This document shows, one piece after another, positions 1-16,860 of a DNA stretch of 64,000 nucleotides. Origin of the DNA: Bacillota bacterium (GTDB lineage: Bacteria > Bacillota > Sulfobacillia > Sulfobacillales > Sulfobacillaceae); assembly GCA_021784595.1 (NCBI GenBank), contig JAJYHT010000031.1, positions 6 through 64,005 of the forward strand, given 5' to 3'. Below the pieces are notes generated by a model. It had not been told where the DNA came from, ran no database searches, and saw nothing but the letters and a program-made list of their open reading frames with translations. The first letter of the stretch is position 1; each line of letters begins with the position of its first letter. A program made the position numbers and the translations under genes.

Positions 1-37
1 GATCGGATGCAGTATACGTGAGAATGCGGAGGTCACA

Positions 38-1180
38 TTGTTGAGTGCAGAACTGGATAGCGAGCATCAAATGATTTATGACACGGCCTTGAAGCTAGCT
101 AGAGATGTCTTAGCGGGGTACGTGCCGATTATGGAAGTGCAAGACCGGTTCCCCTCCGAAGTTTGGGAGCATTTGGCGCAAGCGGGCTTTTTAGGGGTGG
201 GGGTGTCTGAAGAGTGGGGGGGCACAGGCGGCGATTATTTGGCGGCGGCTTTAATCTCGCAGGCTATAGCCAGAGTCAGTCCTGCCATCGCACTTTCGCT
301 CGGCGCGCATGTCAACCTATGCATGCATAACATCATGCGCAACGGCACCGACTTGCTTAAGCAAAAATATGTGCCTTCTCTAGCCTCGGGGCGTTTCATT
401 GGAGGATTGGGACTTACCGAGCCCAATGCGGGGTCCGATGCCTTACGCATGCGCATGCGGGCAGAACGTCTTCCTAATGGATACGCATTAACGGGAACCA
501 AGACCTTTATTACCAACGGGCCGATTGCCGACCTTCTGGTGGTATACGCGGTGACACAGCAAGAGCGGCACGGCATTACAGCCTTTGTGGTGGAAACTCA
601 GGAGTCAGGATTCAGCGTGACAAAATCGCTTAACAAATTGGGGATGCGGGGCTCTCCTACGGGGGAATTGGCCTTTGACCACGTATTTGTTCCTGAAGAG
701 AACGTGTTAGGCCCGGTGAATGGCGGAGTGGGCGTTGTGATGAAGGGACTTGACTTGGAGCGTGCCTACTACTCAGCAACTGCCGTAGGCATTATCGAAG
801 AAATGCTGGAACAGTCGGTCACCTATGCCAAACAACGCGAACAGTTCGGCCAACCGATTGCGCAATTCGAGTTGATTCAGGAAAAGTTGGCTGACATGGC
901 CACGCATTTGGACGCGGCTCGATTATTGACTTTGCAGGCATTGGATTTGGTTGAGAAGGGACAGAGGATTAGCCGATTGGCGGCGTCCGCCTTATTGTTT
1001 GCGGCGGAGGCCGCCAACCGTGCTACCAACCACGCTCTGCAAATTCATGGAGGATATGGATATACCAAGGATTTTCCGGTGGAGCGATTTTTCCGTGATG
1101 CGAAATTGTTGGATATCGGCGCAGGAACTAATGAAATTCGCCGGATTGTGATTGCCCGAGAACTTTTGGGAGATAGGTGA
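38..1180 (+). CDS. acyl-CoA dehydrogenase (isovaleryl/short-branched-chain type)
   Basis: 380-aa ORF. ACAD hallmarks read by eye: GLTEPNAGSD, FITNG, QIHGGYGY. GGAGG lies 5 nt upstream of the TTG start at 38. Confidence 0.9.
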   Translation: MLSAELDSEHQMIYDTALKLARDVLAGYVPIMEVQDRFPSEVWEHLAQAGFLGVGVSEEWGGTGGDYLAAALISQAIARVSPAIALSLGAHVNLCMHNIMRNGTDLLKQKYVPSLASGRFIGGLGLTEPNAGSDALRMRMRAERLPNGYALTGTKTFITNGPIADLLVVYAVTQQERHGITAFVVETQESGFSVTKSLNKLGMRGSPTGELAFDHVFVPEENVLGPVNGGVGVVMKGLDLERAYYSATAVGIIEEMLEQSVTYAKQREQFGQPIAQFELIQEKLADMATHLDAARLLTLQALDLVEKGQRISRLAASALLFAAEAANRATNHALQIHGGYGYTKDFPVERFFRDAKLLDIGAGTNEIRRIVIARELLGDR

Positions 1181-2787
1181 AATCCAATAGCAACCCGATG
1201 GGGAGGAATAGGCCGGTGACAGATGAGAATGTTCGGCTCGAGGAGACGGACGATGTGCAGTTGAACTTGTTGCGGCGATTTAACGTTGCAGACGCGTTGC
1301 ACCGCAGCGCTTTGAGATATCCTAAAAATACGGCGCTTATGTTTGAAGGAGAGTCGATTTCATATCAAACACTTGACCAGTGGGCGAACCAGGTATCGGA
1401 TTGGCTGCTTTGCCAAGGAGTCAGATCGAATGATGTGGTGGCAGCGCTGGCGCTCAACCATCCTCGGCTGGTGGCGCTATGGATGGGAGCAGCTCGGATT
1501 GGCGCCATCTATTGTCCCATCAATCCTTCCTTGCCGCCCAAGGACATTTCCGCGACATTACAAAGAGTCAAAGCCCAGGTGTTTTTTGTAGACGACGCCA
1601 TGCTGCCGGCGGGCAAAGCGGTGGACGCAAACGGATTGTTGCGTGTAGCGCTGGAATCCGGCCATGATGGATTTGTGACGTGGGATGACACCATAGGCCA
1701 AGCTCGCACAGACTATGTAAAAAGTCTGGTGTCGTCCGACGCAGTGGCGACACTTCTGTTTACCAGCGGGACTGAATCTGCCCCCAAAGGTGTCATGAAT
1801 TCTCATGCCAACTGGTACGCTGCGCTGATCAGCATGTTGGCTGACTTGCAGATGAATCGGGATCACAATGTGTTGCTGGCGCTTCCACTGTTTCACGTAG
1901 CGGGCCTCTACGTGTTGTTTGGCACCTTGAGCACTGGGGCTAGGGGATTTTTGATGCGCCGGATTGTACCGCGCGACGTAATCCATGACATTGAACGCTA
2001 TGAACTAACCTGGCTCTGTCTTCCGGCTACGGTGTACATTGGGCTTTTGTCCGCACCCGAGTTAGACCAGGCGTCCCTGGCTTCTCTCAAACGGTGCATT
2101 GTCTTTCAATATATCCCCACCACGCCTCTTAATCAATGGAAACAGCGGTTGCCAAACGTTCATTGGAGCACCTATTGGGGGCAGTCCGAACTGACACCGC
2201 TCGGGGCATCGATGCCGCCTGAAGAGTTTTGGGATCGCACTGATGGACCAGATCCTATTGGGCTGTCCCATCTTCCAGTAGAAATGCGATTGGTTGGCGC
2301 TGAAGACCAGGATGTGCCGCCGGGCACAGCAGGTGAAATTGTGGTGCGCTCGCCTGCTGTGATGACGGGATATTTTGAGGATCCCGTCCGCACTGCCGAA
2401 GTGTTTCGCCATGGGTGGCATCATACCGGAGATGTGGCTTACCAAGACGATGACGGGTTTTATCACTTTGTGGATAGGAAAAAAGACATCATTAAATGCG
2501 GTGGTGAAAATGTATCATCCCAAAAAGTTGAGGAAGCGATAGCTGCCGTGCCTGGTGTGCTGGAAGTGGCCGTGGTCGGACTGCCTGACCCGTATTGGAT
2601 TGAAGCGGTAACAGCCGTTGTGGTTTTGGCTCCTGGCATTTCCCTAAATGATCAAACCCTGCGAGATGCCTGCCGTTCACGACTGGCGGGATATGAAGTG
2701 CCCAAAACGATTTATTTCATGGATAGTTTGCCGAAGAATCCGACCGGCAAGATTTTGAAGCGGGAATTGATAAGGAAACTGACATGA
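1177..2787 (+). CDS. AMP-dependent acyl-CoA synthetase/ligase
   Basis: 536-aa ORF overlapping the upstream stop. Motifs: AMP-binding LLFTSGTESAPKGV, GWHHTGD, C-terminal PKNPTGKILKREL. The true start may be GTG 1216, which has GGGAGGAA 7 nt upstream. Confidence 0.9.
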   Translation: MKSNSNPMGRNRPVTDENVRLEETDDVQLNLLRRFNVADALHRSALRYPKNTALMFEGESISYQTLDQWANQVSDWLLCQGVRSNDVVAALALNHPRLVALWMGAARIGAIYCPINPSLPPKDISATLQRVKAQVFFVDDAMLPAGKAVDANGLLRVALESGHDGFVTWDDTIGQARTDYVKSLVSSDAVATLLFTSGTESAPKGVMNSHANWYAALISMLADLQMNRDHNVLLALPLFHVAGLYVLFGTLSTGARGFLMRRIVPRDVIHDIERYELTWLCLPATVYIGLLSAPELDQASLASLKRCIVFQYIPTTPLNQWKQRLPNVHWSTYWGQSELTPLGASMPPEEFWDRTDGPDPIGLSHLPVEMRLVGAEDQDVPPGTAGEIVVRSPAVMTGYFEDPVRTAEVFRHGWHHTGDVAYQDDDGFYHFVDRKKDIIKCGGENVSSQKVEEAIAAVPGVLEVAVVGLPDPYWIEAVTAVVVLAPGISLNDQTLRDACRSRLAGYEVPKTIYFMDSLPKNPTGKILKRELIRKLT

Positions 2788-3412
2788 CACCCATATTCCA
2801 CCTATCCACACGGGGCAATTGCAGACTCTAAATTGTCTTTGTAGGGGGGCGGCTGAGAGTTTGTTGGTTTCGCGCGAGGGTCCTCTTGTAGGATAGCGTC
2901 GTGCAGGAAGCCGGGCCGTTCCCCCCCACAAGGCGAATAATCTATGCATGCCGAATCCGGTGGGTCTTCATGGCACGTGGATGGCGGGCTCGTCTTTATC
3001 GGTCAATTTCTCCACCATATCTACCATATCCGTCATAACCGCCCTGGCATTACGGATGCCTAATAGTAATTGCCCGGGCGCGTATCAAGAAAAATCACAC
3101 GAGGCCGGTAATCCATAGGACGCCGGCGATGATGCGCGGAGCAACCACCCTAAAATATCGGGCAACAAGTGGCAGCCTCACAGTGCCCGATGATTGGCTA
3201 CACACATTCAACCCCCAGATACCGGAATGAGAACGATGCAAAAAATGCAGATCAGCATATGCTCGGGGGTACATTGGCTACCGCACCGAAGCAGGTGGCT
3301 GTTGATAGAATATTCGGATTTGGGTATCTATTGCTTGTACCTTTCCAAATTGATGTGGATCAGGGATAATTACAGTTATCACCCAGAAATTGATGGATCA
3401 GAGGCGTGCAAC

Positions 3413-3732
3413 ATGAGGATCGTTGGATACGCAAGGAGCTCACAGCCTAGGCACCCCCCCAAGTCGATGTGCAGCTCCTAATCATATACAAACAACTCAC
3501 AAGGATCCGTCAATGGGCTGCGGCTCAGAGTGTTGAGATTGTGTCTGAATATACCGATGTTCACTCTTATCTGAAAACAAGAAAAGGATGGCAATTAGCC
3601 ATTCACGCCGTGGTGGCCGGAGAAGCTGAGGCGATTGTGGTTGTTTCGATGCACTGTGCGTCTTGGAATGACATAATTTTGGAAACAATGAAGCAGACGG
3701 GAATTAAGATCATTGCTTTAAATGACTATTAG
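3413..3732 (+). pseudogene. resolvase-domain (serine recombinase N-terminal) gene, frameshifted in a C7 tract
   Basis: ATG 3413 encodes MRIVGYARSSQPRHPP and stops at 3481. The frame one position away is open from 3451 to 3732 (QVDVQLL...EIVSEYTDV...AIVVVS...KIIALNDY). One extra C in the run at 3454-3460 would join them into a 106-aa resolvase-like N-domain with no E-helix or HTH. Confidence 0.5.
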
Positions 3733-3829
3733 GGCTATACCCCTCGCGGGCTATAATTGACGATTAGGCCGCGTTATCGAATAGCTGAAAATTCAGGGTT
3801 AATAATGATGCCAACTTCTGCTTGTATTC
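3731..3829. repeat. left inverted repeat (IRL) of the recombinase/TA cassette
   Basis: 3778-3812 is the exact reverse complement of 6338-6372 (35/35). Similarity extends to 3731 and 3829. IRL carries a 17-bp insertion (3761-3777) relative to IRR. Confidence 0.85.
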
Positions 3830-3925
3830 TGGCGACGTGCTTTCCAAGGTTTGCACAATCGCTTTTTTGAATGGAGCAAACGACGGATACTAGCGGCCAT
3901 GGAGGCTTTCGGCCTTGACCAGCTT

Positions 3926-4468
3926 TCATAATCGTTCGATGAGATTCAGATTGGAAGAGTTGCTCGGCACTTGGACTATTTCTCGAACTATTCCATCACT
4001 TTGTTTGATGGGCCGCCCGATGCGTTTTCCTTCCCTTTTCGCCCGATCCATGCCGGCCGTCACCCGTTCGCGAATCAATTTCAGCTCAAATTCAGCCAAA
4101 CTGGCCAGCAAGTTCAACAGCAATCGCCCCAACGCGGTGGTGGTGTCGAAGCCTTCCTGAGAGCTCAGAAAGCTCACGTGCGGCGGATCCCATACGGCCA
4201 ACGTGTCGGGCATATGCTTGACCGACCGGAAGGCCCGATCGAGCTTAAAGATCAGCACGGCATCAAACCGCTTCTTGGCCGCGTCATCCAAAAGCTGCCG
4301 CCAGGCGATGCGGCGGCCCACGTCATTCGCACTGGCGGTGTTTACATACTGTTTCGTGACGTGCCAGTCCGGGTGGGCTTTCATAAAATCCCACAAGCGC
4401 ACCAGCTGGGTCTCCAGGTTTTGGTCTTTGTCCCGGGTGGACACCCGGGCATAGAGCGCGATACGCAT
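3926..4468 (-). CDS. small serine recombinase (resolvase/invertase family)
   Basis: MRIALYARVSTRDKDQNLETQ catalytic N-terminus, FKLDRAFRS, E-helix LAEFELKLIRERV, GRP. The C-terminal region after GRP is only ~28 aa, so the HTH is atypical or truncated. Start taken at Met8 of the tracked ORF. Confidence 0.85.
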   Translation of the reverse strand: MRIALYARVSTRDKDQNLETQLVRLWDFMKAHPDWHVTKQYVNTASANDVGRRIAWRQLLDDAAKKRFDAVLIFKLDRAFRSVKHMPDTLAVWDPPHVSFLSSQEGFDTTTALGRLLLNLLASLAEFELKLIRERVTAGMDRAKREGKRIGRPIKQSDGIVREIVQVPSNSSNLNLIERL

Positions 4469-4570
4469 ACTTTTCACATCCTTCCACATTTCTCAACTTA
4501 TCCGGGCGATTTTAGGTGATTTCAAAACGCTGATGGTATGATCCATTCTCCGGTTTTGGCCAGGTTCCAT

Positions 4571-4601
4571 AAAAAAGCCCAGTCCCCGCAGGGACCAGGC
4601 T
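4571..4601 (-). terminator. rho-independent terminator candidate
   Basis: The minus-strand RNA reads gccuggucccugcggggacugggcUUUUUU: a 9-bp stem (2 G-U pairs), a 4-nt loop and a U6 tail. It lies between the toxin-candidate gene and the recombinase gene. Confidence 0.5.
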
Positions 4602-4730
4602 TCGGTCGCTAATTAAGGATCTCTTGCCATCGCGGTCATGGGATAATAGCCCATGCTGGTAGCAGCTGTGACACAAGACACCACACCAACTTCGGTTAGC
4701 GTCGTAACAACGGCAGTACTATATAGCCGG

Positions 4731-4826
4731 CTAGGCTTTCAATATTTGGCAACCGGAATAGCGGGGTGCTGGGGTGTTGGTCTTCTTCTGAGTTGACACC
4801 CGGACGTAAAGTACAACGTGCATCAT
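4731..4826 (-). pseudogene. remnant of a second serine recombinase (N-terminal 31 codons only)
   Basis: A short ORF, MMHVVLYVRVSTQKKTNTPAPRYSGCQILKA, carries the resolvase catalytic-serine motif (hydrophobic strand, then Y-x-R-V-S-T-x-Q) and then stops. No continuation is recognisable in any frame. Confidence 0.35.
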
Positions 4827-4926
4827 GTTATCCCTTGGTCATGTGCCCTCAAAAGGCATGATTCATTGGTAGTGGAATTCACTCAAGGTATGTGGCGATA
4901 GGAACGTGATAAACAAAATTTCTCGG

Positions 4927-5391
4927 CTACGTATGTTTTTTAGACGAGGGAGACACTTGGTGGTCTGGATCCCACCACAAGAGATAGAAATATTTCCGGT
5001 CGCGGATACCAACAATGCGCTCGTGGCCTGTAAATCCCAAAGACATTAGTTCTGTCTCGTCTGGACAGCCAGGCAATCTGTCCGCTAGCTCCTCAAAACG
5101 TTGAATAGCTTTACGCGACACGCTCGACCACCCAAGCGAGTGATTGTGTGTCATACCTAACACTTCTCCCCACGCCATGGTCTCTAGATTGTGGAGCCGA
5201 GAAACGGCTTGAATACAGAACTCCCGAAGGGTTAGAACCTCCCAGCCAAAAGGACCATCATGGTCCATATAGTCAGTTCGCCATTGGAACGGAAGGTCGT
5301 CTCCTGTAGAAAGTTCTGTTGCAACGCGGGGAACTCGGCCAGGGGCAGGAGAAAATTGCCTGTTTGGCTTTTTGTTCTTCTTACTACTCAT
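4927..5391 (-). CDS. hypothetical protein; candidate toxin partner of the Panacea antitoxin
   Basis: 154 aa counted from ATG 5391. That ATG overlaps the upstream stop by 8 nt (ATGAGTAG). Basic N-terminus SSKKNKKPNRQ. C-terminus ERIVGIRDRKYFYLLWWDPDHQV faintly resembles RelE/ParE. I recognise no family. Confidence 0.6.
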   Translation of the reverse strand: MSSKKNKKPNRQFSPAPGRVPRVATELSTGDDLPFQWRTDYMDHDGPFGWEVLTLREFCIQAVSRLHNLETMAWGEVLGMTHNHSLGWSSVSRKAIQRFEELADRLPGCPDETELMSLGFTGHERIVGIRDRKYFYLLWWDPDHQVSPSSKKHT

Positions 5392-5842
5392 TCGAAACAA
5401 GGCCCGAATAATACTTGTGCATCGATGCTAAGCTAATAAGTTCTTGGCTAGTTTCCTCCGGTCCTAATCCGCGTCGAGCTTCGCGCCACGGATCCTCCGA
5501 ATGTGTTAAGTCAGATAACCATTGGGCAGTATGAGACCCATAATATTCTATTACTGCCTGAATCGTGTCGCGGGCATCTTGATCTAGATGATCGGGATTT
5601 CCATCAAACATTCCGGGCTCTACCAGAAACCTTCCGCTGTGCTTGTCGTAGAGGGCGCGCACAACGGGGCCATTCTTCCAAGCCTGAATCTCCTCGTTGA
5701 AAAGAGGACGTTCATCCCATACCAGCGACCATGCTTGACAATAATAGATCAGCTTCTGAAGTTTCATGGCGCTAAGGGATCCCGTGTGATCCAATAGATA
5801 TTCGGCGACATCGAATACCGAAGCGATTGCCACCCCGAACAC
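5384..5842 (-). CDS. Panacea/DUF4065 (SocA/GepA-like) antitoxin-domain protein
   Basis: MKLQKLIYYCQAWSLVWDERPLF..WKNGPVVRALY matches the DUF4065 core as I remember it. The start is GTG 5842, or GTG 5833 which has AGGGGGG upstream. Confidence 0.85.
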   Translation of the reverse strand: MFGVAIASVFDVAEYLLDHTGSLSAMKLQKLIYYCQAWSLVWDERPLFNEEIQAWKNGPVVRALYDKHSGRFLVEPGMFDGNPDHLDQDARDTIQAVIEYYGSHTAQWLSDLTHSEDPWREARRGLGPEETSQELISLASMHKYYSGLVSNE

Positions 5843-6320
5843 CCCCCTGCATACTATTAGATTAAAACTCGTAAATTCCTACTTACTCCGAATCAGTTCA
5901 ACGGAGATATCTTGCCAGTTTACCATCGACTATGGATTCTCCGTTAATCATAGCAGTAATTATACTGTCCGCCCATCACTTTTGATGGTTTTCTTTGCCA
6001 ATGCGTCCTGTGTTTCTTTCAAAGTACTAAACAAAATTTTTTTGCTCGGTTACGCTCGATGGGGACGTGGAGGTCTCACATCAGATGCGACGAGGAATGT
6101 CGGAAGGAGAGGATATGGACGTGCTAAAGGAAGAGCGATAAAACCGTGCCCATTCCAGCCAAAGCCGAGCCCGAGGCGCGGCTAGAACCCGTTCTTGAGG
6201 AAGCGAAAGCCGGCACACGGCACGGCCTTTTGTGGATGCGGCCTATTTCGTTATTGGCGCCCTGGGTAGGCTATGTGTGGTGTTTGGCCCGCGTGCTCTA
6301 CGTTAGCGGCCCTCCATGCC

Positions 6321-6406
6321 GAATACAAGCAGAAGCTGGCATCATTATTAACCCTGAATTTTCAGCTATTCGTCAATTGTAGTCTGCGAGGGGTATAACA
6401 TGCCCT
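6321..6406. repeat. right inverted repeat (IRR) of the recombinase/TA cassette
   Basis: Reverse complement of IRL. It ends directly against the cydC stop codon at 6407-6409. Confidence 0.85.
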
Positions 6407-8092
6407 CTACACGATCTCCGTATGTTGAACTTTAGTGAAATTATCGGTCAGGCATCCATTACGCAAAGTGAGCACACGATCCACCAATGCCAAGTGCGCG
6501 GGGTCGTGGGTAATCCATAGTACGGTTTTGCCGCTTAGAGAAGCCATAATGCGGGTCATGATGCGACGAGCCGCCAATGCATCTAAACCTTCGGTGGGTT
6601 CATCCAAAAGCATCACCGGCGCATCTTTTATCAGAGCCCGGGCCAAAGCCAATTTCTTTCGCTGGCCGCCTGACATTCCTTGTCCGTGTTCACCAACCAA
6701 GACATCTAGGCCTTGTGGGTAGGATTGAACCCACTCGTTTAACTCGACCATCTCTAAGGCAGTCCAGAGGGTGGATTCTGAGGCAAGCGGGTTGGCTAGT
6801 AGCAAGTTTTGCTTTAGACTGGTATCAAAAATATGGGGATCCTGCGGCACCGCAGAAAAGGTTTGCCGCACCGATTCTCCATCTAGCGCTAACAAATCTT
6901 CCGCGCCATAGGCCAACGATCCTGAAACGGGGTCAGCAAATCGCAATAAGAGCGAAATCAAGGTCGATTTGCCGGCCCCACTTTCCCCCATCACAGCCGC
7001 ATGCTCACCAGGTTTGAGAGTCAATGATACGTCCTCTAAAATCCATGGCTCAAACGAGTCGTAACGGTACCACACATGGGACCACTGGATAAATTCTACG
7101 CCATAACGATGAGGCATCGACGGTTTTTTTATGGCCAGGCGCTGGGGGGTGTCCTGACTGAGCGCGACAATGCGGGCATCGGCGGCAATTAAGGAGCCGC
7201 GCATTTGAAAAGCGGCGGCTAGCGGCCGGATGGCCTCAAAACTGGCGAGTGCCAGCAGCACGGCAACGGGAAGCAGGACACCCGGCACTCGGCCCCGGAT
7301 GACGAGAAGTGACCCAGCCACTAAAATGGTCCAGGGCACCGCATGATTGCCTAATTCGGTCAGCCCTACTCCAATACCTTTAAGTCGGTTGATGTGCCGG
7401 GTTACCTCAACCCACCGCGCTTCCAATAACTCTTGGGCCACTTGAAAACGCTGGAATGCTCCCAAAGTGATTAAGTCCGAGAGGCCAAACATGGCATCCA
7501 TCCAGCGCACCGAGCGTTGGGCACGAAGTCCGACAATTTCTGCTGCATATTTTTGGGTTACACTATCCATTGCTAAAGGCAGGCCAACGCCAATGGTTAT
7601 TAACAGTACGAGCAGCAATCCTGCCAAAAGGGGAGACACTAGCCACTGTACCCCAGCGGCAATAACGAGACTTCCGGCCGCCACCAGTATGGGAGTGACT
7701 AGACCTAGATAGGCGTTTTGCAGCGTTTCCACATCCGCGCCAAATCGGGTCCATAGGTCGCCGCTTAGGTGTCTTTTAAGCACAATGGGACTTAATGGCT
7801 CGATGGCCTGATAAATTTTGATGCGAATATTCTTCAGTAGCCGAAACGTCACGTCATGAGAAAAATATCGATCTCCATATCGAAACACCCCGCGTGAAGT
7901 TCCAAAAAAGCGAACTCCAACGATGGGAACCCAGAGTAGCAAGATGGTTTGGGGATGCTGCGCCGCCTTGGCTATCAGGTAGGCTGAGGTCGACATAAGT
8001 CCTAAATTGGCGGCCACGGTAAATATGCCAAACAGTAATGCTAAGGCGACTCCTAGGCGATAGGGCCATAGACGGTGAACCCAATGTTTCAT
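6407..8092 (-). CDS. cydC: thiol-reductant ABC exporter subunit CydC (fused TMD-NBD)
   Basis: Six-TM domain followed by an NBD: Walker A GESGAGKST, signature MSGGQRKKL, Walker B MLLDEPT. Start taken at MKHWVHRLW (8092), which gives an ATGA overlap with the cydD stop. The tracked ORF extends 62 codons further upstream. Confidence 0.85.
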   Translation of the reverse strand: MKHWVHRLWPYRLGVALALLFGIFTVAANLGLMSTSAYLIAKAAQHPQTILLLWVPIVGVRFFGTSRGVFRYGDRYFSHDVTFRLLKNIRIKIYQAIEPLSPIVLKRHLSGDLWTRFGADVETLQNAYLGLVTPILVAAGSLVIAAGVQWLVSPLLAGLLLVLLITIGVGLPLAMDSVTQKYAAEIVGLRAQRSVRWMDAMFGLSDLITLGAFQRFQVAQELLEARWVEVTRHINRLKGIGVGLTELGNHAVPWTILVAGSLLVIRGRVPGVLLPVAVLLALASFEAIRPLAAAFQMRGSLIAADARIVALSQDTPQRLAIKKPSMPHRYGVEFIQWSHVWYRYDSFEPWILEDVSLTLKPGEHAAVMGESGAGKSTLISLLLRFADPVSGSLAYGAEDLLALDGESVRQTFSAVPQDPHIFDTSLKQNLLLANPLASESTLWTALEMVELNEWVQSYPQGLDVLVGEHGQGMSGGQRKKLALARALIKDAPVMLLDEPTEGLDALAARRIMTRIMASLSGKTVLWITHDPAHLALVDRVLTLRNGCLTDNFTKVQHTEIV

Positions 8093-9828
8093 CGCAAGGC
8101 CTCCTTTGCAGCAGGGGACCACGCTTGGTCCAAATCGAAAAACAAGCCAGCCCGTTGGCGCAAGACACTTAGTGGACCATAATCGACTAGCTGTCCATGG
8201 TCTAATACCGCTACGTGAGATAAGGCATGGAGAGTGCTCAAACGATGCGCTACCAAAATAACCGTGCGTGTTTGACACAAGGCATCGATAGTCTTTGTCA
8301 ACCAGGCTTCGCTGACCTCGTCCAAGTGAGCGCTGGGTTCATCCAACAACACGATGGGGGAATTTTTTAAAAACACACGGGCGAGCGCCAAGCGTTGCCG
8401 TTCACCGCCCGACAGCCGCACGCCGTTTTCCCCGATGGGAGTGTGCAATCCCTGAGGCAGGCGCGATATGACTTCGTCAAATCGCGCACGGGCAATCGCT
8501 TCCTCAATGTGAGCAGGGGTAGCATCGGGCTCGGCCAACTTCAGATTATCCAAAATAGTGCCTGCGAACAGATAGGGAGTTTGGCTCACATACGCCAATT
8601 GCTTATGCCACCAGTCGCGGTCCAAGTCGCCTATTGGAATGTTGCCTACCCGGACAATGCCTTCTGTGGCGGGAACAAAGCCGAGCAATAACGATAATAA
8701 AGTAGTTTTGCCACTGCCGGTGGGTCCTACCAGCGCCAGTGAAGATTGCGGCGGTATAGACAAATTGATGGCTTTTACGGCGTAGGGTGCGTTCTCACGA
8801 TAGCGGAAGGAACAGGATTCGAAGGACAGAGGCCAGGGCCCGTCGCCGACGGGTATCGAACGGCCAGTGCCTTTGGCCCACTCGGGGCGGTCCAGCATGT
8901 CAAAAATACGGCTGGCGGCGGCCAGCCCATTTAACCCATCATGAAACTTGGCGCCTAAGGCTCGCCATGGTGCATAAAAGTCAGGAACCAAGACCAACAA
9001 AAAGAAGGATTCCTCAAATCCAATATGACCGCCGATGAGACGTAGTCCGATCCCTACCGCGACCATGGCCATGCTTAAGGAAGCCAAAAGTTCTAATACC
9101 AGGCCAGACAAAAAGGCCAAACGCAAGGTCGCCATCGTACTCTTGCGAAAAGACTCCGCAGCCATGCCAATCGCAGTTTCTTGCTGTCGGCTTTGACCAA
9201 AAATTTTTAACGTTTCGAGTCCCTGAACGATGTCCAAAAAGTGAGAGCCTAGACGCCCAAGAGTGGCCCAACGCTTTTCGGTTTCCCTTTGCGCTTGGCG
9301 TCCAATCAAGATCATAAAGAAGGGGATTAAGGGCACTGTCACAAGTAAGATGGCGGCAGTTATCCAGTCGGTGAAAATTACTTTGATTCCGATAATGAGG
9401 GGAATCATCGCCGTCAGCACCATCTGCGGAAGATAGCGGGCCAAAAAAGTTTCTAGGTTGTCGACGCCTTGGATGACCGTATTGATCAGTTCACCTATAT
9501 GGTCTTGGGTCCATACCAACGGTCCGGTGTTTGCTAGTTTTTGTAACAATCGTCTGCGCAACGAGGATTCGACTCCCGTTGAAAGATTAAGCGACGCGGT
9601 TTCTGTAAGTCCTGCAATGACGGATCGGGTCAATAAAATCGCCAACAAAATAGCAATCCAGGGTGCAATGGTCTGCCAACTGGCATGGTGAATATAGACG
9701 GCTGCGACCACTTGAGCCAAAAAACCCGCTTCTAAAACGATTAGGATGCCGGATGCCAGGCCATAGCCAGCTACCGTGGCTAATAGCCACCTAACCGGTC
9801 GCACTTCTTTGATTAAGCGTTGATACAT
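8089..9828 (-). CDS. cydD: thiol-reductant ABC exporter subunit CydD (fused TMD-NBD)
   Basis: 579 aa. GPTGSGKTT, LSGGERQRLALAR, VLLDEPSAHLD. First gene of a pair divergent from cydAB. Which gene is D and which is C was assigned by gene order only. Confidence 0.85.
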   Translation of the reverse strand: MYQRLIKEVRPVRWLLATVAGYGLASGILIVLEAGFLAQVVAAVYIHHASWQTIAPWIAILLAILLTRSVIAGLTETASLNLSTGVESSLRRRLLQKLANTGPLVWTQDHIGELINTVIQGVDNLETFLARYLPQMVLTAMIPLIIGIKVIFTDWITAAILLVTVPLIPFFMILIGRQAQRETEKRWATLGRLGSHFLDIVQGLETLKIFGQSRQQETAIGMAAESFRKSTMATLRLAFLSGLVLELLASLSMAMVAVGIGLRLIGGHIGFEESFFLLVLVPDFYAPWRALGAKFHDGLNGLAAASRIFDMLDRPEWAKGTGRSIPVGDGPWPLSFESCSFRYRENAPYAVKAINLSIPPQSSLALVGPTGSGKTTLLSLLLGFVPATEGIVRVGNIPIGDLDRDWWHKQLAYVSQTPYLFAGTILDNLKLAEPDATPAHIEEAIARARFDEVISRLPQGLHTPIGENGVRLSGGERQRLALARVFLKNSPIVLLDEPSAHLDEVSEAWLTKTIDALCQTRTVILVAHRLSTLHALSHVAVLDHGQLVDYGPLSVLRQRAGLFFDLDQAWSPAAKEALR

Positions 9829-10110
9829 AGCCTGGGCGCCGCCTTTCGTCTTCTCTTTCCCTCATGCTAGCGGGCTATTGAATATTGTGCAACTTGACGG
9901 CGTTTAATATTACACAGAAAAACCCGTAAGCCACCAAGATTCTAGGAATTTTGGACCCCTTGATTTTGGGACTATTGGCCCCTATAAAGGACCAATGGTC
10001 TATGCAAAAGTTTGGTCATACGGCTACGCCAAAGCAGTCCTAATGAATGATGCAATGGTGAAGCGAATGTTAGACGATTGTGACAGGAATCATCAAAAGG
10101 AGGCCGAGTC

Positions 10111-11505
10111 ATGAGCCAACTTGGATTAGCGCGATTGCAGTTTGGAGTCACAACGGTTTACCACTTCTTCTTTGTGCCCATAACCATCGGTTTGGCGGTT
10201 TTGCTGGCCATTCTGGAATCAATGTATGTAGCGACCGGAAACGAAGATTATAAAATATTGACCAAGTTCTGGGGCAAGTTGTTTCTTATCAACTTTGCGG
10301 TCGGTGTCGTTACCGGTATTCTGCAGGAGTTTCAGTTTGGATTGGATTGGGCTAATTACTCACGGTTTGTGGGCGACATCTTTGGAGCTCCCTTGGCTAT
10401 CGAGGCATTGGCCGCATTCTTTTTAGAGTCGACATTTATTGGCATTTGGCAATTTGGTTGGGAACAGGTCTCAAAAAGAGTGCACTTGTTGGCCATCTGG
10501 ATGGTGGCTCTGGGTACGACCTTGTCAGGATTTTGGATTCTCACCGCCAACTCCTTTATGCAAGAGCCTGTTGGCTATATGCTGGTGAACGGAAAAGCAG
10601 AAATGAAGAGCTTTGGGGATCTGTTAGTCAACCCGCAGTTGTGGGTGGAATTTCCCCATACCATTGTTGCCGCCTATTTAACCGCAGCGGTCTTTATGTT
10701 GGCGATTTCCGCCTATCAAATTCTTCATCACCGCAATCCCGAACTGTTTAAAAAATCTTTTAAACTGGCTTCCGTCGCAGTTTTGGTTACGGGGATTGCA
10801 GTGGCCCTCATAGGTGATCAGCAAGCCACGCACTTGGTTACGGCGCAACCGATGAAGATGGCAGCTGCCGAAGCTATTTGGCAAAACACGCCAAACCACG
10901 CTCCTTGGACCGTGATTGGCGTGGTAGACAGTAAGACGCATAAAATTCAGGATGCGGTGCAAATACCGGATCTGTTGTCTATCTTGGCGTACAAACACTT
11001 GTCAGGCTCCCTGCAAGGGATGAATACCTTGCAAGCAAAAGATGTCCAGCAATATGGTCAAGGAAATTATGTACCGCCCGTCGCGCCGACGTTTTATGCT
11101 TTCCGCGTCATGATCTTGATGGGTGTGCTCATGATTTTGGCCGGTTTGTGGGCGACTATTCGCTTGCGGGGAGAGAAATTTTTAGACAATCGACGGTTGT
11201 TGAAGGTGATGATCTGGACGCTTCCCATGCCATATATCGCAAACGCCTCCGGATGGATTATGACCGAGGTGGGGCGCCAGCCATGGGTGGTTTATGGACT
11301 TTTGTCCACGGCGCGCGGGGTCTCGCCCGCCGGCACTGTGCCAGCTTTCGATATCTGGACTTCGTTGGTGCTCTTTTCCGCTATCTATACGGCACTTGCG
11401 GTGGCGGCGGTATTTCTCTTCAAGAAGTATACCGATTTGGGCGCCACGCCGGCCAAAGCACCGGTTGAGTCGGGCGAAGATGGATATCTGCACGTGGTGA
11501 GCTGA
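10111..11505 (+). CDS. cydA: cytochrome bd ubiquinol oxidase subunit I (short Q-loop type)
   Basis: 464 aa. LARLQFGVTTVYHFFFVP, GILQEFQFG, EALAAFFLESTF, GWIMTEVGRQPW. AAGGAGG RBS. Confidence 0.95.
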   Translation: MSQLGLARLQFGVTTVYHFFFVPITIGLAVLLAILESMYVATGNEDYKILTKFWGKLFLINFAVGVVTGILQEFQFGLDWANYSRFVGDIFGAPLAIEALAAFFLESTFIGIWQFGWEQVSKRVHLLAIWMVALGTTLSGFWILTANSFMQEPVGYMLVNGKAEMKSFGDLLVNPQLWVEFPHTIVAAYLTAAVFMLAISAYQILHHRNPELFKKSFKLASVAVLVTGIAVALIGDQQATHLVTAQPMKMAAAEAIWQNTPNHAPWTVIGVVDSKTHKIQDAVQIPDLLSILAYKHLSGSLQGMNTLQAKDVQQYGQGNYVPPVAPTFYAFRVMILMGVLMILAGLWATIRLRGEKFLDNRRLLKVMIWTLPMPYIANASGWIMTEVGRQPWVVYGLLSTARGVSPAGTVPAFDIWTSLVLFSAIYTALAVAAVFLFKKYTDLGATPAKAPVESGEDGYLHVVS

Positions 11506-11545
11506 AAACAGCAGGATGTGCGTGATACAGGGAGGAGGGGTCCTC

Positions 11546-12553
11546 ATGAACCTAAATGTGTTGTGGTTTGTCCTAATAGGAGTACTTTTTGTAGGATACT
11601 TCTTTTTAGAGGGTTTCGATTACGGTGTCGGAATGATTTATCAATTTCTTGGGCATTCAGACACCGAGCGACGTGTCGCCTTAAACGCCATTGGCCCCAC
11701 TTGGGGGGCTAATGAGGTGTGGTTGATTACAGCTGGAGGAGCTATTTTCGCAGCATTTCCAGAATGGTATGCCACCCTATTTAGCGGGTTTTATCTGGCT
11801 TTAGTGCTGATGCTGTTGGGTTTAATCGCCCGGGGCGTGGCGTTGGAGTATCGCAGCCGCCACGACAACCCGGGGTGGCGGCGCATGTGGGATTGGGCGT
11901 TGACGATAGGCAGTTTCATTCCTGCTCTGTTGTGGGGGGTGGCGGTAGCCAATTTAGTGCGCGGGGTGCCGATTAATAGCCAAATGAACTTTACTGGCAA
12001 CCTGCTGACGCTGTTGAATCCCTACGCCTTGTGGTCAGGGTTAGCCATGGTGGTAGTCTTCTTGGCCCACGGAGCCTATTTTCTTAGCATGAAGACCAGA
12101 GGCATGATAAGTTATCGTGCCAAACAAGTGGTTAAACCGCTGGGCTATGGTGCCGTGGCCATGGTGCTGGTGCTGTTATTGTGGACCGCGACTTTAAAAG
12201 ATTTGCGGCTTGCCGCAGTTCCGGCGCTGGTCGGTTTGGCAGCTCTAATCCTCATAGCGGCAGCGGTGGTGGCGATGACAAAAAATCGCATCCGGTGGGC
12301 GTTTTTCCTTCACGGCGCCGGCATTGCGCTTTTAACGGTGTCATTTTTTGCCGCCATGTTCCCGCGGGTAATGATTTCCAGTTTAAACCCACAGTGGAGT
12401 CTTACCATCTACAATGCGGCATCCAATAGCTATACCTTGCAGGTGATGACTATTGTGGCCTTGACGATGGTGCCGATTGTGCTGGCATATCAGGTGTGGA
12501 CTTATTGGATTTTTCGTCGGCGAGTGGGCACCAAAAGCTTCATGGAATATTGA
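11546..12553 (+). CDS. cydB: cytochrome bd ubiquinol oxidase subunit II
   Basis: LEGFDYGVGM, GPTWGANEVWLITAGGAIFAAFP. Start taken at ATG 11546, downstream of GGAGGAGGGG. Confidence 0.92.
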   Translation: MNLNVLWFVLIGVLFVGYFFLEGFDYGVGMIYQFLGHSDTERRVALNAIGPTWGANEVWLITAGGAIFAAFPEWYATLFSGFYLALVLMLLGLIARGVALEYRSRHDNPGWRRMWDWALTIGSFIPALLWGVAVANLVRGVPINSQMNFTGNLLTLLNPYALWSGLAMVVVFLAHGAYFLSMKTRGMISYRAKQVVKPLGYGAVAMVLVLLLWTATLKDLRLAAVPALVGLAALILIAAAVVAMTKNRIRWAFFLHGAGIALLTVSFFAAMFPRVMISSLNPQWSLTIYNAASNSYTLQVMTIVALTMVPIVLAYQVWTYWIFRRRVGTKSFMEY

Positions 12554-12759
12554 ACTGCACTCTCGACCGCCCGAGCGCCCCGTTGATGTCAACCAACGCG
12601 GCGCTCCTCATTTTTCGCGAGTCGCCAGACTGACCATACCCACATTGCCCTGGATTGGATCAGATGGATGAAGAGGGACCCGGCCTAAACCTTTTAATGC
12701 GTCGCCAATCATGTTAGGCTTGAATTGTCGGCAAGGACTCAACGAGCGGGAGTAGATGG

Positions 12760-14142
12760 ATGTTCAATCCGAGCAATGCAGCGAGAGGCTGGCGGTACCG
12801 GATTACTGCCACTGTTTTGGCTATGGCCGGAGTGCTTGCCACCATTGTGGTTTATAAACACTACATTATGAATTTGCATCATATTCATGGTGACAAGCTG
12901 TTGTATTTGGCAGTGGTGTTGATATTTTTCACCGGCGTGTTCTCCTTTGTAGTGTTCGGTTTATTGGAAGGACAGCAACGGCGTTTAGCTGAGGTCAACA
13001 ATGAACTGCAGCGCCAGCGCGACATTTTGCAAGGATTGTGGGACGCCACCGGCGTGGTGGCTAGTCTTCCGGAGATGGATGGTGTGCTGCAACGCATTGT
13101 GGATGTCTCCAGGCCATTATTTGGCGCCGAATACGCTGCCTTGGGGGTCTTGAACGAGGATGAACCAACCCGCATTCGTCAATTCATTACATCGGGGTTG
13201 TCGGAAGAAATGCGCAAGGCTATTGGAGACTTGCCAAAAGGGCACGGACTTTTAGGCGAAGTGATTCGAACCAAACAAGTTTTACGTCTGGCCGATTTGG
13301 CGTTGCATCCCGCATCGTCGGGATTTCCGCCTCATCACCCGGCCATGACAAGTTTTTTAGGCGTGCCGTTGCTTTACCGAGGGGTCATTGTTGGGCATCT
13401 TTATCTAACGAACAAGCATGGCGGCTTCACCGCTCAAGACGAGATGCTGGCTCAACTGTTTGCCCGGCAAGCGGCAGTGGTGATTTCTAACGCCCGGTTG
13501 TATCAGGGACGGGAAGAGTGGGCGACCGTACAAGAGCGGGAACGGATTGGACGCGAGTTGCACGATGGAGTGTTGCAGACGTTGTACGGTTTGAATTTGG
13601 CTCTGGATTTCCTTTTGGACTCAGAGCAGTCTTTAAGCGATACCGCACAGCGCGAAATGACTCGAATTACCGAAACGTTAAGTCTGACCATGACCGATAT
13701 TCGCATGTATATTCAAAGTTTAGGATCGTCACCAGTGGACTTTCAAGTAGCCGTAAAGGATATGTTGCAGCGCTCGGGAGGATTGCAGGATATCCAACTG
13801 GAATTCCTTGATTCAGAATATCTTTCGCTCAACCCTGAATTGATTCATGATCTGGTGATGTCGATTCAAGAAGCGGTGTCCAACGCCCGTCGGCATGGTC
13901 AGGCAGACCACATCGCGGTCGGTTGGAAGTCTCCCGAGGGGCCATATTTTTTGGTGTGGGTCAAAGACAATGGGGTAGGGTTTGATGCCACAATCAGTCC
14001 GCGGGAGAACCATTTTGGGCTAACCAATATGCAACGTCGTACCGAACAGTGGCACGGCGAGGTCCGGTTGCAAAGCCAGCCTGGGCAGGGAACCACGGTA
14101 GAATTCCGGATTCCTAAAATCGGCGACGCTCAATTGATGTAG
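12760..14142 (+). CDS. membrane GAF-domain sensor histidine kinase (HisKA_3/NarX-type)
   Basis: Two N-terminal TM helices. GAF-like block (HPASSGFPPHHPAMTSFLGVPLLYRG). H-box ERERIGRELHDGVLQ. HATPase N and G boxes. Confidence 0.9.
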   Translation: MFNPSNAARGWRYRITATVLAMAGVLATIVVYKHYIMNLHHIHGDKLLYLAVVLIFFTGVFSFVVFGLLEGQQRRLAEVNNELQRQRDILQGLWDATGVVASLPEMDGVLQRIVDVSRPLFGAEYAALGVLNEDEPTRIRQFITSGLSEEMRKAIGDLPKGHGLLGEVIRTKQVLRLADLALHPASSGFPPHHPAMTSFLGVPLLYRGVIVGHLYLTNKHGGFTAQDEMLAQLFARQAAVVISNARLYQGREEWATVQERERIGRELHDGVLQTLYGLNLALDFLLDSEQSLSDTAQREMTRITETLSLTMTDIRMYIQSLGSSPVDFQVAVKDMLQRSGGLQDIQLEFLDSEYLSLNPELIHDLVMSIQEAVSNARRHGQADHIAVGWKSPEGPYFLVWVKDNGVGFDATISPRENHFGLTNMQRRTEQWHGEVRLQSQPGQGTTVEFRIPKIGDAQLM

Positions 14143-14173
14143 CGGTGTAGGAGAGAAAGGGGTAGGCGTATTT

Positions 14174-14827
14174 ATGCCTGAAGAAATAATTCGCGTAGTG
14201 ATTGTAGATGATCACGAAGTCGTGCGGGTAGGGTTGAAAAACCTTATCGATTTGCAGCCTGACCTGACGGTAGTGGGCGATTATGCGACGGGACAAGAGG
14301 CCATCGACAAGGTTCCCCATCACGCCGATGTGGTGGTGTTGGACGTGCGCCTGCCGGACAAGAGTGGTTTTGAGGTGTGTCGGGAAATCAAGGAACAGGA
14401 CATGAATGTCCAAATTATCATGTTAACCTCGTTTGGACAGGACGAAATGGTGCTAGACGCCATAAATGCGGGCGCATCAGGATATTTGCTGAAAGAAGCC
14501 CGCGGGCATACGGTGATTGAAGGCATTCGGACCGTAGCGCAGGGAGGATCGTTGTTTAGTCCGCAAGTAACCGGGGCATTGTTCCAACGGTTGCGCTCAA
14601 TGCACGGCTCGGCTGATCCGATTGAAGAGTTGACTGAAAACGAGAAGAAAATCTTGTCGTTTGTGTCGCAAGGGAAAACCAACCGCGAAATCGGCCAGGA
14701 ATTGTTTCTGAGCGAAAAGACCATCAAACATTATGTGAGTAGTATTTTGAGCAAGCTGGGTTATACCCGGCGCTCCGAAGCTGCCGCGCATTTCGCGCGA
14801 TACCAAGCGGATCGCCGCCGTTCTTAG
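14174..14827 (+). CDS. NarL/LuxR-family response regulator
   Basis: REC domain (VVIVDDH, VVVLDVRLPD) plus a LuxR HTH (LTENEKKILSFVSQGKTNREIGQELFLSEKTIKHYVSSIL). Confidence 0.92.
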   Translation: MPEEIIRVVIVDDHEVVRVGLKNLIDLQPDLTVVGDYATGQEAIDKVPHHADVVVLDVRLPDKSGFEVCREIKEQDMNVQIIMLTSFGQDEMVLDAINAGASGYLLKEARGHTVIEGIRTVAQGGSLFSPQVTGALFQRLRSMHGSADPIEELTENEKKILSFVSQGKTNREIGQELFLSEKTIKHYVSSILSKLGYTRRSEAAAHFARYQADRRRS

Positions 14828-14837
14828 GGATCATTGA

Positions 14838-14954
14838 TCAATGGTGATGGGTGAGTCGATAGATGCCCCAGATAACCAGTGCCCAAATTCCGACTTGCCA
14901 TAGCCCCATGGCAAGCCATGCGTTCATATGGCTGAGCGTTTGCCAGGCCATCAT
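14838..14954 (-). CDS. possible 38-aa single-TM peptide
   Basis: MMAWQTLSHMNAWLAMGLWQVGIWALVIWGIYRLTHHH, preceded by AAAGGAGG 5 nt upstream. No homology recognised. Confidence 0.25.
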   Translation of the reverse strand: MMAWQTLSHMNAWLAMGLWQVGIWALVIWGIYRLTHHH

Positions 14955-15261
14955 GGGAGCCTCCTTTTGGTCCGTTCCCAGCTGGTGATGTTTGTCTTCT
15001 TGGATTTCACTATACCAACTGGCGATGCCGTCTACAGGGCCCATACGATCCCTCCGTATGCAGAAAAGGACCCCGTTTGATGTGTCCTATCATACGAAGC
15101 CGGGCTCTTGTCGGCGTGGTCCAAAAGGTCCTGAAATTTGGGACCATTGGGTCCATTGTGTTTGGCCTTCTTCAGCATGTATATCCCTGTGTGCCGTTCT
15201 TACTCATGGCGGACATATCTTGTGGGCATTCTGGGAATCATATCCGGCGAGGTGCCCTGCT

Positions 15262-16860
15262 ATGAATCCAGAATTTAGCAAAGAACTGCAAACTCTACTA
15301 AAGCGCTTGAATCAAGATATTAACGGGTGGACGGCGGCATTGGGACAGGATCCGTCGGCCCCCGCCGATCAATATGTGCCTGGTGTGGAGGCCGCTTATC
15401 AACGCCTTAAAGCAGGCATGGGCAAAAGTTCGGATGTGCTGTTGCGAAAAATTGAGGTGCCGTCATGCCCCGCAAGTCCTGTTTTGATCGCGTGCATCGA
15501 TGGAATGGCAGATACTCAAATGGTCGACCAGGATATCATTCAGCCGTTGATGGCGACCGAGAAAGAACCCAGCACTTGGGATCGCAATACCATGACCCCG
15601 GTTCACATCACCAAAGAGACGTCCTGGCCCAAAATTTTGCAGGATTTGGCGGCTGGCAATACCATGATTTTTGCCCCTCAATTGAATTTTGTTTGGGTAG
15701 TGGACACGGTGAAATATAAGCAGCGGGCGATTGAGCGGCCACAAACTGAGCTGGCGGTGCGAGGCACTGAAGAGGCGTTCAACGAGATTCTCTTGACCCA
15801 AAAAAACCAAATTCGCCGCCATCTGCTAAGTCCTACCCTGCAGTTTCATGACGTTACCATTGGCCGGATACAGCACACCACGGTGTCAGTGGCCTATATA
15901 GAAGACGTGACTAACCCGGCTTTAGTGGACGAGGCGATTCATCGTTTGAAAGCGATAGTGATTGATGGGGCAGCCAATTCCACTACGATTGCGGGACTCA
16001 TTCGCGATCATCCCCGCTCCATATTTCCCACCATGCGCGCTACCGAGCGCGTGGACATCGTCATTTGGCGCCTGTTGGAAGGCGCCGTGGTCATTCTAAC
16101 CGAGGGCGATCCGTTTGCCCTTATCGCGCCTTCGCCGTTGGTAGACTTTTATCGCACTTCCATGGACTATTCCAGTTCCTGGATAGATAGTAGCTTTGTG
16201 CGCGTGATCCGGTTTGGTGGCTGGATTCTTGGGCTATATCTACCAGCCATGTATATCGCGTTAGCTGATGTTAACCCGAGCGTCCTACCGTCCGAACTTT
16301 TTATCGTCATGCAAGGAAGCCACGCGGGACTGCCATTTCCTCCTCCGGTTGAAATTGTACTGATGATTTTGATAATTGAGATTTTAAGGGAGGCAGCTTT
16401 ACGGTTGCCTAAACCATTAAGTACGACGTTGGGCACAGTAGGAGCGATTGTAGTGGGCACATCTGTTGTCAAGGCGGGCTTAGTTGATCCTCAAATCATT
16501 GTAATCATAACGCTTACTGCGCTGAGCCTTTTTTCCACGCCTGTCTATGAATTGACCGGGAGTTGGCGCATAGTAGGGTTTGGACTCCTGTTGGGTGGAG
16601 CATTCTTAGGTGTGTTGGGTATAGTGATTGTGACCATGATGGTTTTGGCGGTGCTGATTGACATGCAAAGCTTTGGCGCACCCTATTTTGCTCCGTGGGC
16701 ACCGTTTCGACCAAGAGATTGGAAGGACAGCATAGTACGGGTGCCATGGACTGATTTTACAACGCGTTGGCACAGTACCCGCGCGCTTCAGATTCAATGG
16801 CGGGACCCCACCAAAGTTCGCTCGCGTCCCCACTTGCTTAAGCGGAGACGTTCATCATGA
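15262..16860 (+). CDS. spore germination protein, GerA (A-subunit) family
   Basis: ELAVRGTEEAFNEILLTQKNQIRR and C-terminal TM helices are typical of GerAA/GerKA. Start taken at MNPEFSKEL (15262). The upstream 90 codons of the tracked ORF look non-coding. Confidence 0.85.
   Translation: MNPEFSKELQTLLKRLNQDINGWTAALGQDPSAPADQYVPGVEAAYQRLKAGMGKSSDVLLRKIEVPSCPASPVLIACIDGMADTQMVDQDIIQPLMATEKEPSTWDRNTMTPVHITKETSWPKILQDLAAGNTMIFAPQLNFVWVVDTVKYKQRAIERPQTELAVRGTEEAFNEILLTQKNQIRRHLLSPTLQFHDVTIGRIQHTTVSVAYIEDVTNPALVDEAIHRLKAIVIDGAANSTTIAGLIRDHPRSIFPTMRATERVDIVIWRLLEGAVVILTEGDPFALIAPSPLVDFYRTSMDYSSSWIDSSFVRVIRFGGWILGLYLPAMYIALADVNPSVLPSELFIVMQGSHAGLPFPPPVEIVLMILIIEILREAALRLPKPLSTTLGTVGAIVVGTSVVKAGLVDPQIIVIITLTALSLFSTPVYELTGSWRIVGFGLLLGGAFLGVLGIVIVTMMVLAVLIDMQSFGAPYFAPWAPFRPRDWKDSIVRVPWTDFTTRWHSTRALQIQWRDPTKVRSRPHLLKRRRSS

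Follow-up and report, generated by a model that had tools for sequence, protein, structure and literature searches.

The 64,000-nucleotide stretch analysed here (the window; contig JAJYHT010000031.1 of the Sulfobacillaceae assembly GCA_021784595.1) contains, 3' of cydC, a segment of 2,658 bp (positions 3738-6395, with a TA dinucleotide on each side) that is very likely a decayed and now non-autonomous composite transposon of the IS630/Tc1-mariner family, inserted as one unit and carrying a Panacea-type toxin-antitoxin pair as cargo. Two inverted copies of the same insertion sequence (IS) bracket unrelated genes, the remnants of these copies being separated by about 2.1 kb of unrelated DNA. A first-pass annotation, made from the letters of the window alone, had proposed either a site-specific inversion switch or a transposase-less mobile cassette, and had been unable to place the segment in a described element family. 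The second proposal is supported by the IS630-type right ends of the segment and by an empty site in a sister strain, and the element can now be placed in the IS630 family, as a composite transposon.

Homology shows the two arms of the long inverted repeat to be the right-hand ends of two decayed IS630-family copies, the transposase genes of which read outward. Each arm holds the ~25 C-terminal codons of a transposase gene of the IS630 family (Pfam DDE_3) and the terminal inverted repeat (TIR). Among all translation frames of the unassigned DNA, the one running from a break in the recombinase gene (discussed below) into the left arm gave a weak Pfam DDE_3 match (E=0.008) on ...VPSNSSNLNLIERL*KLVK.... 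The match covers the LPxYSPxLNxIExxW motif of the IS630-family transposases, which in the window takes the form ...LPxYSxNLNLIERLWK.... A transposase reconstruction of 85 amino acids, in which a TGA codon was read as the conserved tryptophan, has 54 database homologues (best E=1e-23, 62% identity), 51 of which have a precomputed PF13358 (DDE_3) assignment; NCBI names one of the 54 an IS630 family transposase, and several bear the JGI label 'transposase'. The homology extends to the C-terminus (...KLASLLTLNFQxFxNVSL); the tail concerned, KLASLLTLNFQLF.N.SL, is encoded inside the arms. In the right arm it can be read in frame from position 6321 as GAA TAC AAG CAG AAG CTG GCA TCA TTA TTA ACC CTG AAT TTT CAG, continuing as CTA TTC GTC AAT TGT AGT CTG CGA GGG GTA TAA, with the stop codon at 6396-6398.

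The extent of the two copies was mapped by tblastn, using a near-full-length relative (L038) and nine full-length transposases (337-357 amino acids) from JGI metagenome loci. The amino-acid limits of both remnants refer to full-length relatives of 344-350 amino acids. The left remnant (3738-4009, minus strand), identified by the DDE_3 match, the homologues and tblastn, comprises the TIR and the 3' end of a transposase pseudogene that reads outward and has two in-frame stops: amino acids ~263-344 of the transposase align from window position 4009 down to 3767 (E 1e-15 to 1e-25). Over 239 nt (window 3731-3969) it is 86.6% identical in DNA to L039, an independent copy from a different metagenome. 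The right remnant (6131-6395, plus strand), delimited by tblastn and alignment, also reads outward, is frameshifted, and has lost its 5' part and left end. It retains amino acids ~132-201 at 6131-6322 (E 1e-9 to 3e-12) and, as its tail, amino acids ~317-344 at 6303-6386 (E 1e-4 to 3e-6), whereas amino acids ~202-316 (about 115 codons) have been lost between the retained parts. The FVDAAYFVIGALG motif near the right arm had received no support as an IS630 or IS256 relic from Pfam, NCBIfam or tblastn against plasmids; the full-length relatives assigned it to amino acids ~132-201 of the IS630 transposase. Thus 272 nt (left) and 265 nt (right) are left of an IS of ~1.15 kb, and both inner ends are missing. 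With two stops in the left copy, a frameshift in the right one and no further copy in the window, an intact transposase is lacking; the earlier statement that the cassette contains no transposase was nevertheless wrong in detail, as two pseudogene remnants lie inside it.

The two comparison loci show some features of their own. In L038 (700-720) a 4-nt CTAG duplication breaks the VVLDNARYQ motif of the transposase, and a run of eight A residues is found at the first frame change. L039 contains (at 702-954) a 3'-terminal remnant of the same IS, cut near amino acid ~250, almost as in the left copy of the window, and a TIR-like string, CATACCCCTGCACAGG, occurs ~180 nt downstream of this remnant (at ~1125-1140). 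Such recurrent 'solo right-end' IS630 remnants may not be random.

The JGI metagenomes hold at least 529 relatives. Full-length elements measure 1.11-1.20 kb, and most of their TIRs begin TATAC(T/C)..C.CGG.CA.AA.TG. The left arm of the element (3736-3829) is IS630 right-end sequence common to both arms, the outer ~28 nt of which (TATACCCCTCGCGGGCTATAATTGACGA) form the TIR; the right arm, as delimited by alignment, occupies 6321-6397. The element has TATACCCCTCGC... ends, and the tips TATACCCCTCGCGGGCTATAATTGACGA (left) and TATACCCCTCGCAGACTACAATTGACGA (right) agree with the TIR consensus at 17/25 and 15/25 positions, respectively, with up to 19/25 for the left tip and its best single relative. 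Directly outside the tips the sequence reads TA on both sides. The left TA (3736-3737) is a candidate IS630-type target duplication, and the right one (6396-6397) also supplies the T and the first A of the transposase stop codon TAA. In the alignment of four copies the similarity stops at ...GGGGTA|TA; that of L039 ends at the same tip as in the window (...GCGAGGGGTA|TA), and that of L038 likewise. The IS630 family is known to insert at TA and to duplicate it, and 24-30 bp of each end suffice for the transposition of ISY100 (PMC2170065). The segment resembles IS630/ISY100 elements in its DDE_3 homology, in TIRs like those of full-length relatives, in the TA beside the tips and in a stop codon at the very end of the element. 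It differs from them in that it is not a single IS, has no intact transposase, has right ends at both of its outer limits, and holds 2.1 kb of unrelated DNA.

The geometry of the repeat agrees in large part with what had been described earlier. The exact inverted repeat was reproduced: 3778-3812 is the reverse complement of 6338-6372 at 35 of 35 positions, with two copies in the 64-kb window and none in 100 shuffles. The inward continuation to 3829/6321 was found as well, giving a near-perfect match over 3778-3829 and 6321-6372 (51/52, a single mismatch). Since the right remnant lacks ~115 internal codons, the repeat stops inward at the point where the right IS copy was rejoined after its internal deletion. 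Outward, the similarity had been followed to 3731/6406. The arms do continue to match beyond an indel of 17 bp at 3761-3777, but the outermost part, i.e. GGGC/GCCC with what had been taken for a 4-bp indel, is chromosomal flank that is also found in the empty-site strain, so that the limits of the element are 3738 and 6395. The 17 bp had been read as an insertion in the left copy. They represent a deletion in the right arm, because the independent copies L039 and L038 both carry the segment. The positions given for the two flanking TAG stop codons, that of a resolvase-like fragment (3730-3732) and that of cydC (6407-6409), are correct. As to base composition, the supposedly lower GC content amounts to 0.504 for the segment against 0.518 for the window, a difference in the stated direction, yet 23% of the stretches of this size have a GC content no higher than that.

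The segment bounded by the inverted repeat is a discrete presence/absence polymorphism between close strains. The proteins of the window itself led to three assemblies (L001, L002 and L024) that contain the same locus, including both arms, at 99.96-99.98% identity. The empty site that the first-pass annotation had suggested looking for, joining ~3730 to ~6407, was found in a contig of a sister strain (L032), which was reached via the cydC homologue P0121 (99% identity). There, cydC and an AMP-ligase gene lie 359 nt apart. In a BLAST alignment L032 matches the window at 1-3008 (96.7%), 3656-3733 (97.4%) and 6397-16433 (98.6%), and 3734-6396 is absent. The empty allele retains the last 78 nt of the resolvase fragment to the left as well as the GCCCTCTA adjoining cydC. 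The limits of the strain-variable segment thus fall within 0-4 nt of the IS tips, and no interior sequence is left in L032.

Some other variation was seen at this locus. A second polymorphism concerns 3009-3655, where 647 nt, including the 5' part of the older resolvase fragment, are replaced by ~60 unrelated nt in L032. Two independent assemblies, L027 (GCA_021788705.1) and L028 (ERZ27233565), both stop at 5783, inside the antitoxin gene, and the Logan contig L031 stops at 3400; neither position is a repeat boundary. These contig ends may hint at further cassette variants in the samples concerned.

Three other explanations of the arms were considered and rejected. An arm that is simply the native 3' untranslated region or terminator of cydC is at odds with its absence both from L032 and from a cydC relative of 73% identity (L033). 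A dispersed repeat, of the repetitive extragenic palindrome (REP) type or akin to a miniature inverted-repeat transposable element (MITE), does not fit either: the 35-mer occurs only twice in the window, and the genome and metagenome scans revealed no further copies. A 20-mer of the arm core has seven single matches in the GTDB representative genomes, in unrelated phyla and none extending beyond 20-27 nt, and the core was not found in the JGI metagenomes (23-mer scan), in IMG/VR or in plasmids (blastn). The many dispersed copies unlinked to recombinases that would characterise a generic repeat were therefore seen neither in the window nor in the GTDB, JGI, IMG/VR and plasmid scans. Finally, the arms have no internal terminal repeats, as each would if it were a self-contained MITE. 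A second copy of the complete 2.66-kb unit was not encountered in the collections searched by DNA (GTDB representatives, JGI metagenomes, IMG/VR and plasmids).

The history that we propose is as follows. Two copies of one IS630-family IS lie in inverted orientation, with their right ends and transposase genes outward, and the long inverted repeat is the IS right end kept by both wrecks (the ~25 last codons and the ~28-bp TIR). A deletion has cut a second recombinase gene after codon 153, fusing the recombinase in frame to the transposase tail. As both limits of the variable segment lie only a few nucleotides from the IS tips, the unit would have moved as one piece: most probably it was inserted, or later excised, as a whole by an IS630-type transposase acting on the outward ends, which would explain the absence of precisely this segment from the sister strain. 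The unit is now non-autonomous at best, since both transposase genes are destroyed; neither copy can make transposase today, and any further movement would depend on an intact cognate IS at another place in the genome. The toxin-antitoxin pair that it carries would help to keep the insertion in place. The movement as a unit by a transposase, the present immobility and this role of the pair are inferences, in contrast to the identity of the arms, the truncations and the presence/absence polymorphism, which are shown.

Several observations weigh against this history. The empty-site evidence comes from a single allele, so that the event may have been an insertion or an excision, and the internal deletions may have preceded or followed it. 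Moreover, there is a TA outside both tips in the window, whereas the sole empty allele reads ...GGAC-AA-ACAG..., with no TA at the junction. Its full junction, TTAGGAC-AA-ACAGTGCCC, departs from the clean site that would be predicted, TTAGGGC-TA-ACATGCCC. The three differences in ~12 nt, one of which affects the T of the expected TA, are more than the flank divergence of 1.4-3.3% predicts, and the junction is not a canonical Tc1/mariner excision footprint either. That two right ends would form a competent pair is assumed by analogy with other IS630/mariner elements. Lastly, an intact cognate IS with these ends was found neither in the window nor in the GTDB representative genomes, the JGI metagenomes (at the 23-mer level), IMG/VR or plasmids.

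The same junction lends some weight to an alternative in which there was never a mobile unit, and two IS630 copies independently entered a resolvase/toxin-antitoxin island by cydC and decayed in place. The allele of L032 would then reflect an older lineage, the replacement of the allele through homologous recombination, or some unrelated deletion. Besides the lack of the clean TA site that a simple insertion predicts, the heavy deletions in both IS copies are compatible with such a scenario, as is the graveyard-like character of the region, with the second indel (3009-3655) and the older resolvase fragment just outside the element. We nonetheless regard it as improbable. The variable segment starts and ends 0-4 nt from the IS tips and L032 is devoid of any interior; recombination between inverted copies would yield an inversion, not a deletion; and two chance insertions that happen to define both edges, with the right ends outward, are far less parsimonious than one composite event.

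The recombinase gene between the arms had been described as intact. The annotated open reading frame (ORF) of 180 amino acids (3926-4468, minus strand) is a chimera, in which amino acids 1-153 of a small serine recombinase continue in frame into 27 residues from the tail of the transposase. It matches Pfam Resolvase (1e-30), and the Pfam scan detected no helix-turn-helix (HTH) domain. A search with the recombinase yielded 2,473 homologues, the close ones of which measure 199-205 amino acids, many with a C-terminal HTH_psq domain. In the alignment the window recombinase tracks the family up to Gly-Arg-Pro (amino acids 151-153), after which it has 27 unrelated residues against the ~45 HTH residues of its relatives. 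The DNA similarity to all the intact homologues fetched ends at 4009-4011 (77% for L005-L016, 83% for L034/L035 and 73% for L036), and none of the contexts of these homologues (L005-L016 and L034-L036) includes the arm sequence. The gene is therefore better annotated as a truncated serine recombinase (4010-4468, minus strand) that retains the catalytic domain, with its active-site YARVST motif, and the E-helix up to GRP; Pfam, the homologue alignment and the limit of DNA homology agree on this point. It belongs to a resolvase-like clade that is found on integrative elements, and the NCBIfam model of the Mpi invertase matches it only at 2e-4. In L005-L016 the intact homologues (201-204 amino acids) are part of a conserved module of ~8 kb with a ParB-like protein and a MerR regulator, and in some contigs a tyrosine integrase; this is probably an integrative element that is widespread in these metagenomes.

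Two other recombinase relics occur nearby. The remnant of a second recombinase that had been noticed inside the cassette was indeed found, as an N-terminal scrap (MMHVVLYVRVST...) at ~4795-4833 on the minus strand; it was recognised by its translation and by a directly repeated stretch that it shares with the 5'-terminal part of the recombinase gene (family D1), and has no Pfam match. The other relic, an older degenerate serine-recombinase fragment (3413-3732, plus strand; Pfam Resolvase 7e-6 after frame repair), lies outside the element and belongs to the flank as it was before the cassette; the 78 nt at its end (3656-3733) occur in L032 too. Owing to a 2-nt indel, the fragment reads as an ORF of 103 amino acids in L001.

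In a programmed inversion, the serine recombinase or a paralogue acting in trans would recombine the arms at CTGAA-AA-TTCAG and flip the 2.5-kb segment. The arms are indeed inverted and near-identical over 52 nt, a serine-recombinase catalytic domain with a YARVST motif is encoded inside the segment, and intact paralogues of 199-205 amino acids occur in the same community (e.g. L034, from the same sample as L002). The recombinase, however, diverges from its family right after GRP and has no HTH, and its clade is resolvase-like, with the match to the Mpi invertase model merely at 2e-4. The palindrome, CTGAATTTTCAG at 6354-6365 (plus strand) with a mirror copy at 3785-3796, had been interpreted as the hix-like core of a serine-invertase crossover site. 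In the frame that runs from 6321 to the TAA at 6396-6398, it is the codon string CTG AAT TTT CAG, i.e. the Leu-Asn-Phe-Gln of the conserved transposase tail (LNFQ within ...LASLLTLNFQ), and 5-2-5 palindromes are frequent in the window (87 against 62 expected, about one per 735 nt). Only this 5-2-5 palindrome was found, and no 26-bp hix-like site with two 12-bp half-sites around a 2-bp core. With respect to the suggested check for both orientations, the three spanning assemblies (L001, L002 and L024) are all co-linear with the window and share a single orientation. Logan contigs break at the arm (3778/3784 and 6343), as expected for repeats longer than k = 31, and are uninformative on inversion. 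There is also no promoter or split gene placed to be switched. We therefore hold a programmed inversion to be very improbable, and it is at least as hard to credit that the chimera of a catalytic domain and a transposase tail, or a paralogue, would invert the segment. A serine-integrase model, in which the joined ends would represent attP, was rejected too: the half-sites are asymmetric about any shared dinucleotide and the recombinase is truncated.

The composite transposon carries the Panacea-type toxin-antitoxin pair that had been recognised earlier between the arms. The antitoxin gene (5384-5842, minus strand) encodes a SocA/Panacea-domain protein (Pfam PF13274, 4e-19; NCBIfam SocA_antitoxin, 5e-13, below cut-off). 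It shares a 17-nt overlap with the gene of the putative toxin partner (4927-5400, minus strand), an intact ORF of 154-157 amino acids whose only family match is a weak one, below cut-off, to NCBIfam MAG6450 (8e-5). The pair is probably functional. Downstream of the toxin-antitoxin genes and of the serine recombinase scrap (remnant C) lies a hairpin that resembles an intrinsic terminator (4570-4603, minus strand; a 13-bp stem followed by U6, fold energy -23.4 kcal/mol, z = -3.3). Rfam gave no match in 2700-6600, and a promoter/terminator scan performed no better than on shuffles.

The neighbourhood of a resolvase and a toxin-antitoxin pair is also the arrangement of Tn3-family transposition modules (PMC7157771), and transposase-less carriers of a resolvase are known (TIME-RES; PMC4133298). 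One could thus think of a non-autonomous Tn3-family derivative of the TIME or mobile insertion cassette (MIC) type, with a resolvase and a toxin-antitoxin module. This is an exceedingly remote prospect: the tips (TATACCCC...) are of the IS630 type and not the conserved 38-bp terminal repeats of the Tn3 family, the ends show no target duplication of 5-6 bp, a remnant of a Tn3-type transposase is lacking, and blastn revealed no plasmid-borne relative.

Elements of the kind that we propose are already known, if rarely documented. Tn630-NC1 of Nitrosomonas communis (Hu et al. 2024, Sci Rep) was reported as the first composite transposon made of two IS630 copies (PMC11544213). As in the window, the IS630-family copies of Tn630-NC1 are inverted, with transposase genes reading outward from the body, the cargo includes a toxin-antitoxin pair, and both IS components have degenerated, in Tn630-NC1 by indels; Tn630-NC1 has TATA at both outer ends, where the window element has TA beside both tips (PMC11544213). 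The two elements differ in that the IS copies in the window are far more decayed (272 and 265 nt of ~1.15 kb), with their inner ends gone, and in their cargo, which consists of the Panacea/SocA pair and recombinase fragments in the window and of BrnTA, VapE and AntA in Tn630-NC1. Furthermore, the window element resides in a metagenome-assembled genome (MAG) of an uncultured member of the Bacillota, and a strain-level empty site is available for it.

More distant parallels can be drawn as well. MICs and the TIME-COMP and TIME-RES elements (Szuplewska et al. 2014, PMC4133298) are likewise transposase-less, with inverted ends derived from an IS or transposon and movable in trans, and some of them carry a resolvase or a toxin-antitoxin module, as the window element does (PMC4133298). 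They derive, however, from IS231 or Tn3, with 38-bp ends and duplications of 5-6 bp, whereas the ends in the window are of the IS630 type with a 2-bp TA. The toxin-antitoxin pairs of Tn3 modules (Lima-Mendez et al. 2020, PMC7157771) and the chromosomal ones between res-I-like palindromes (PMC13617665) are similar to the window element in that the pair travels along with DNA of transposons and resolvases and is present or absent between close strains. In Photorhabdus one palindrome copy stays behind at the empty site (PMC13617665), whereas L032 keeps neither arm, and the arms in the window are IS630 ends and not res sites. Invertible segments of the Hin/Gin/Cin/Pin type, finally, have inverted repeats that bracket a serine-recombinase catalytic domain. 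In contrast to these, the window recombinase has no DNA-binding domain, paired 12-bp half-sites are lacking, a second orientation was not seen, there is nothing to switch, and the repeats have a complete alternative explanation.

Elsewhere in the window, a second cytochrome bd oxidase operon is found at 22022-24478 (subunit I of 464 and subunit II of 337 amino acids), about 10 kb from the cydAB-cydDC cluster (6407-12553). In a protein of 843 amino acids (40624-43155), a PLD-like nuclease domain occurs together with a ResIII/DEAD helicase and an HNH-associated repeat; by its domain architecture it looks like a defence or restriction protein. The insertion has no evident effect on cydC, the end of which lies 9 nt outside the TA flank of the element at 6397.

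The inverton-like pattern of a long inverted repeat with a serine recombinase is thus fully explained by two wrecked IS630 copies, and the value of this result is mainly that of a correction. The 180-amino-acid 'recombinase family protein' of the gene callers, which also appears in a sister MAG (P0001), is an annotation trap. Beyond that, the element would be a second, independently evidenced IS630-family composite transposon with toxin-antitoxin cargo, now accompanied by a natural empty site, which is of modest interest for the curation of insertion sequences and for the spread of toxin-antitoxin modules in chromosomes. A more far-reaching suggestion, which we put forward tentatively and think unlikely, is that the unit is still mobilisable in trans, and that paired solo right-end IS630 remnants are a general route for moving whatever lies between them, here a Panacea module that would protect the insertion from loss. 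If this were true, the filled/empty polymorphism would constitute population-level evidence for IS630-type composite transposition, which has been reported only once, for Tn630-NC1.

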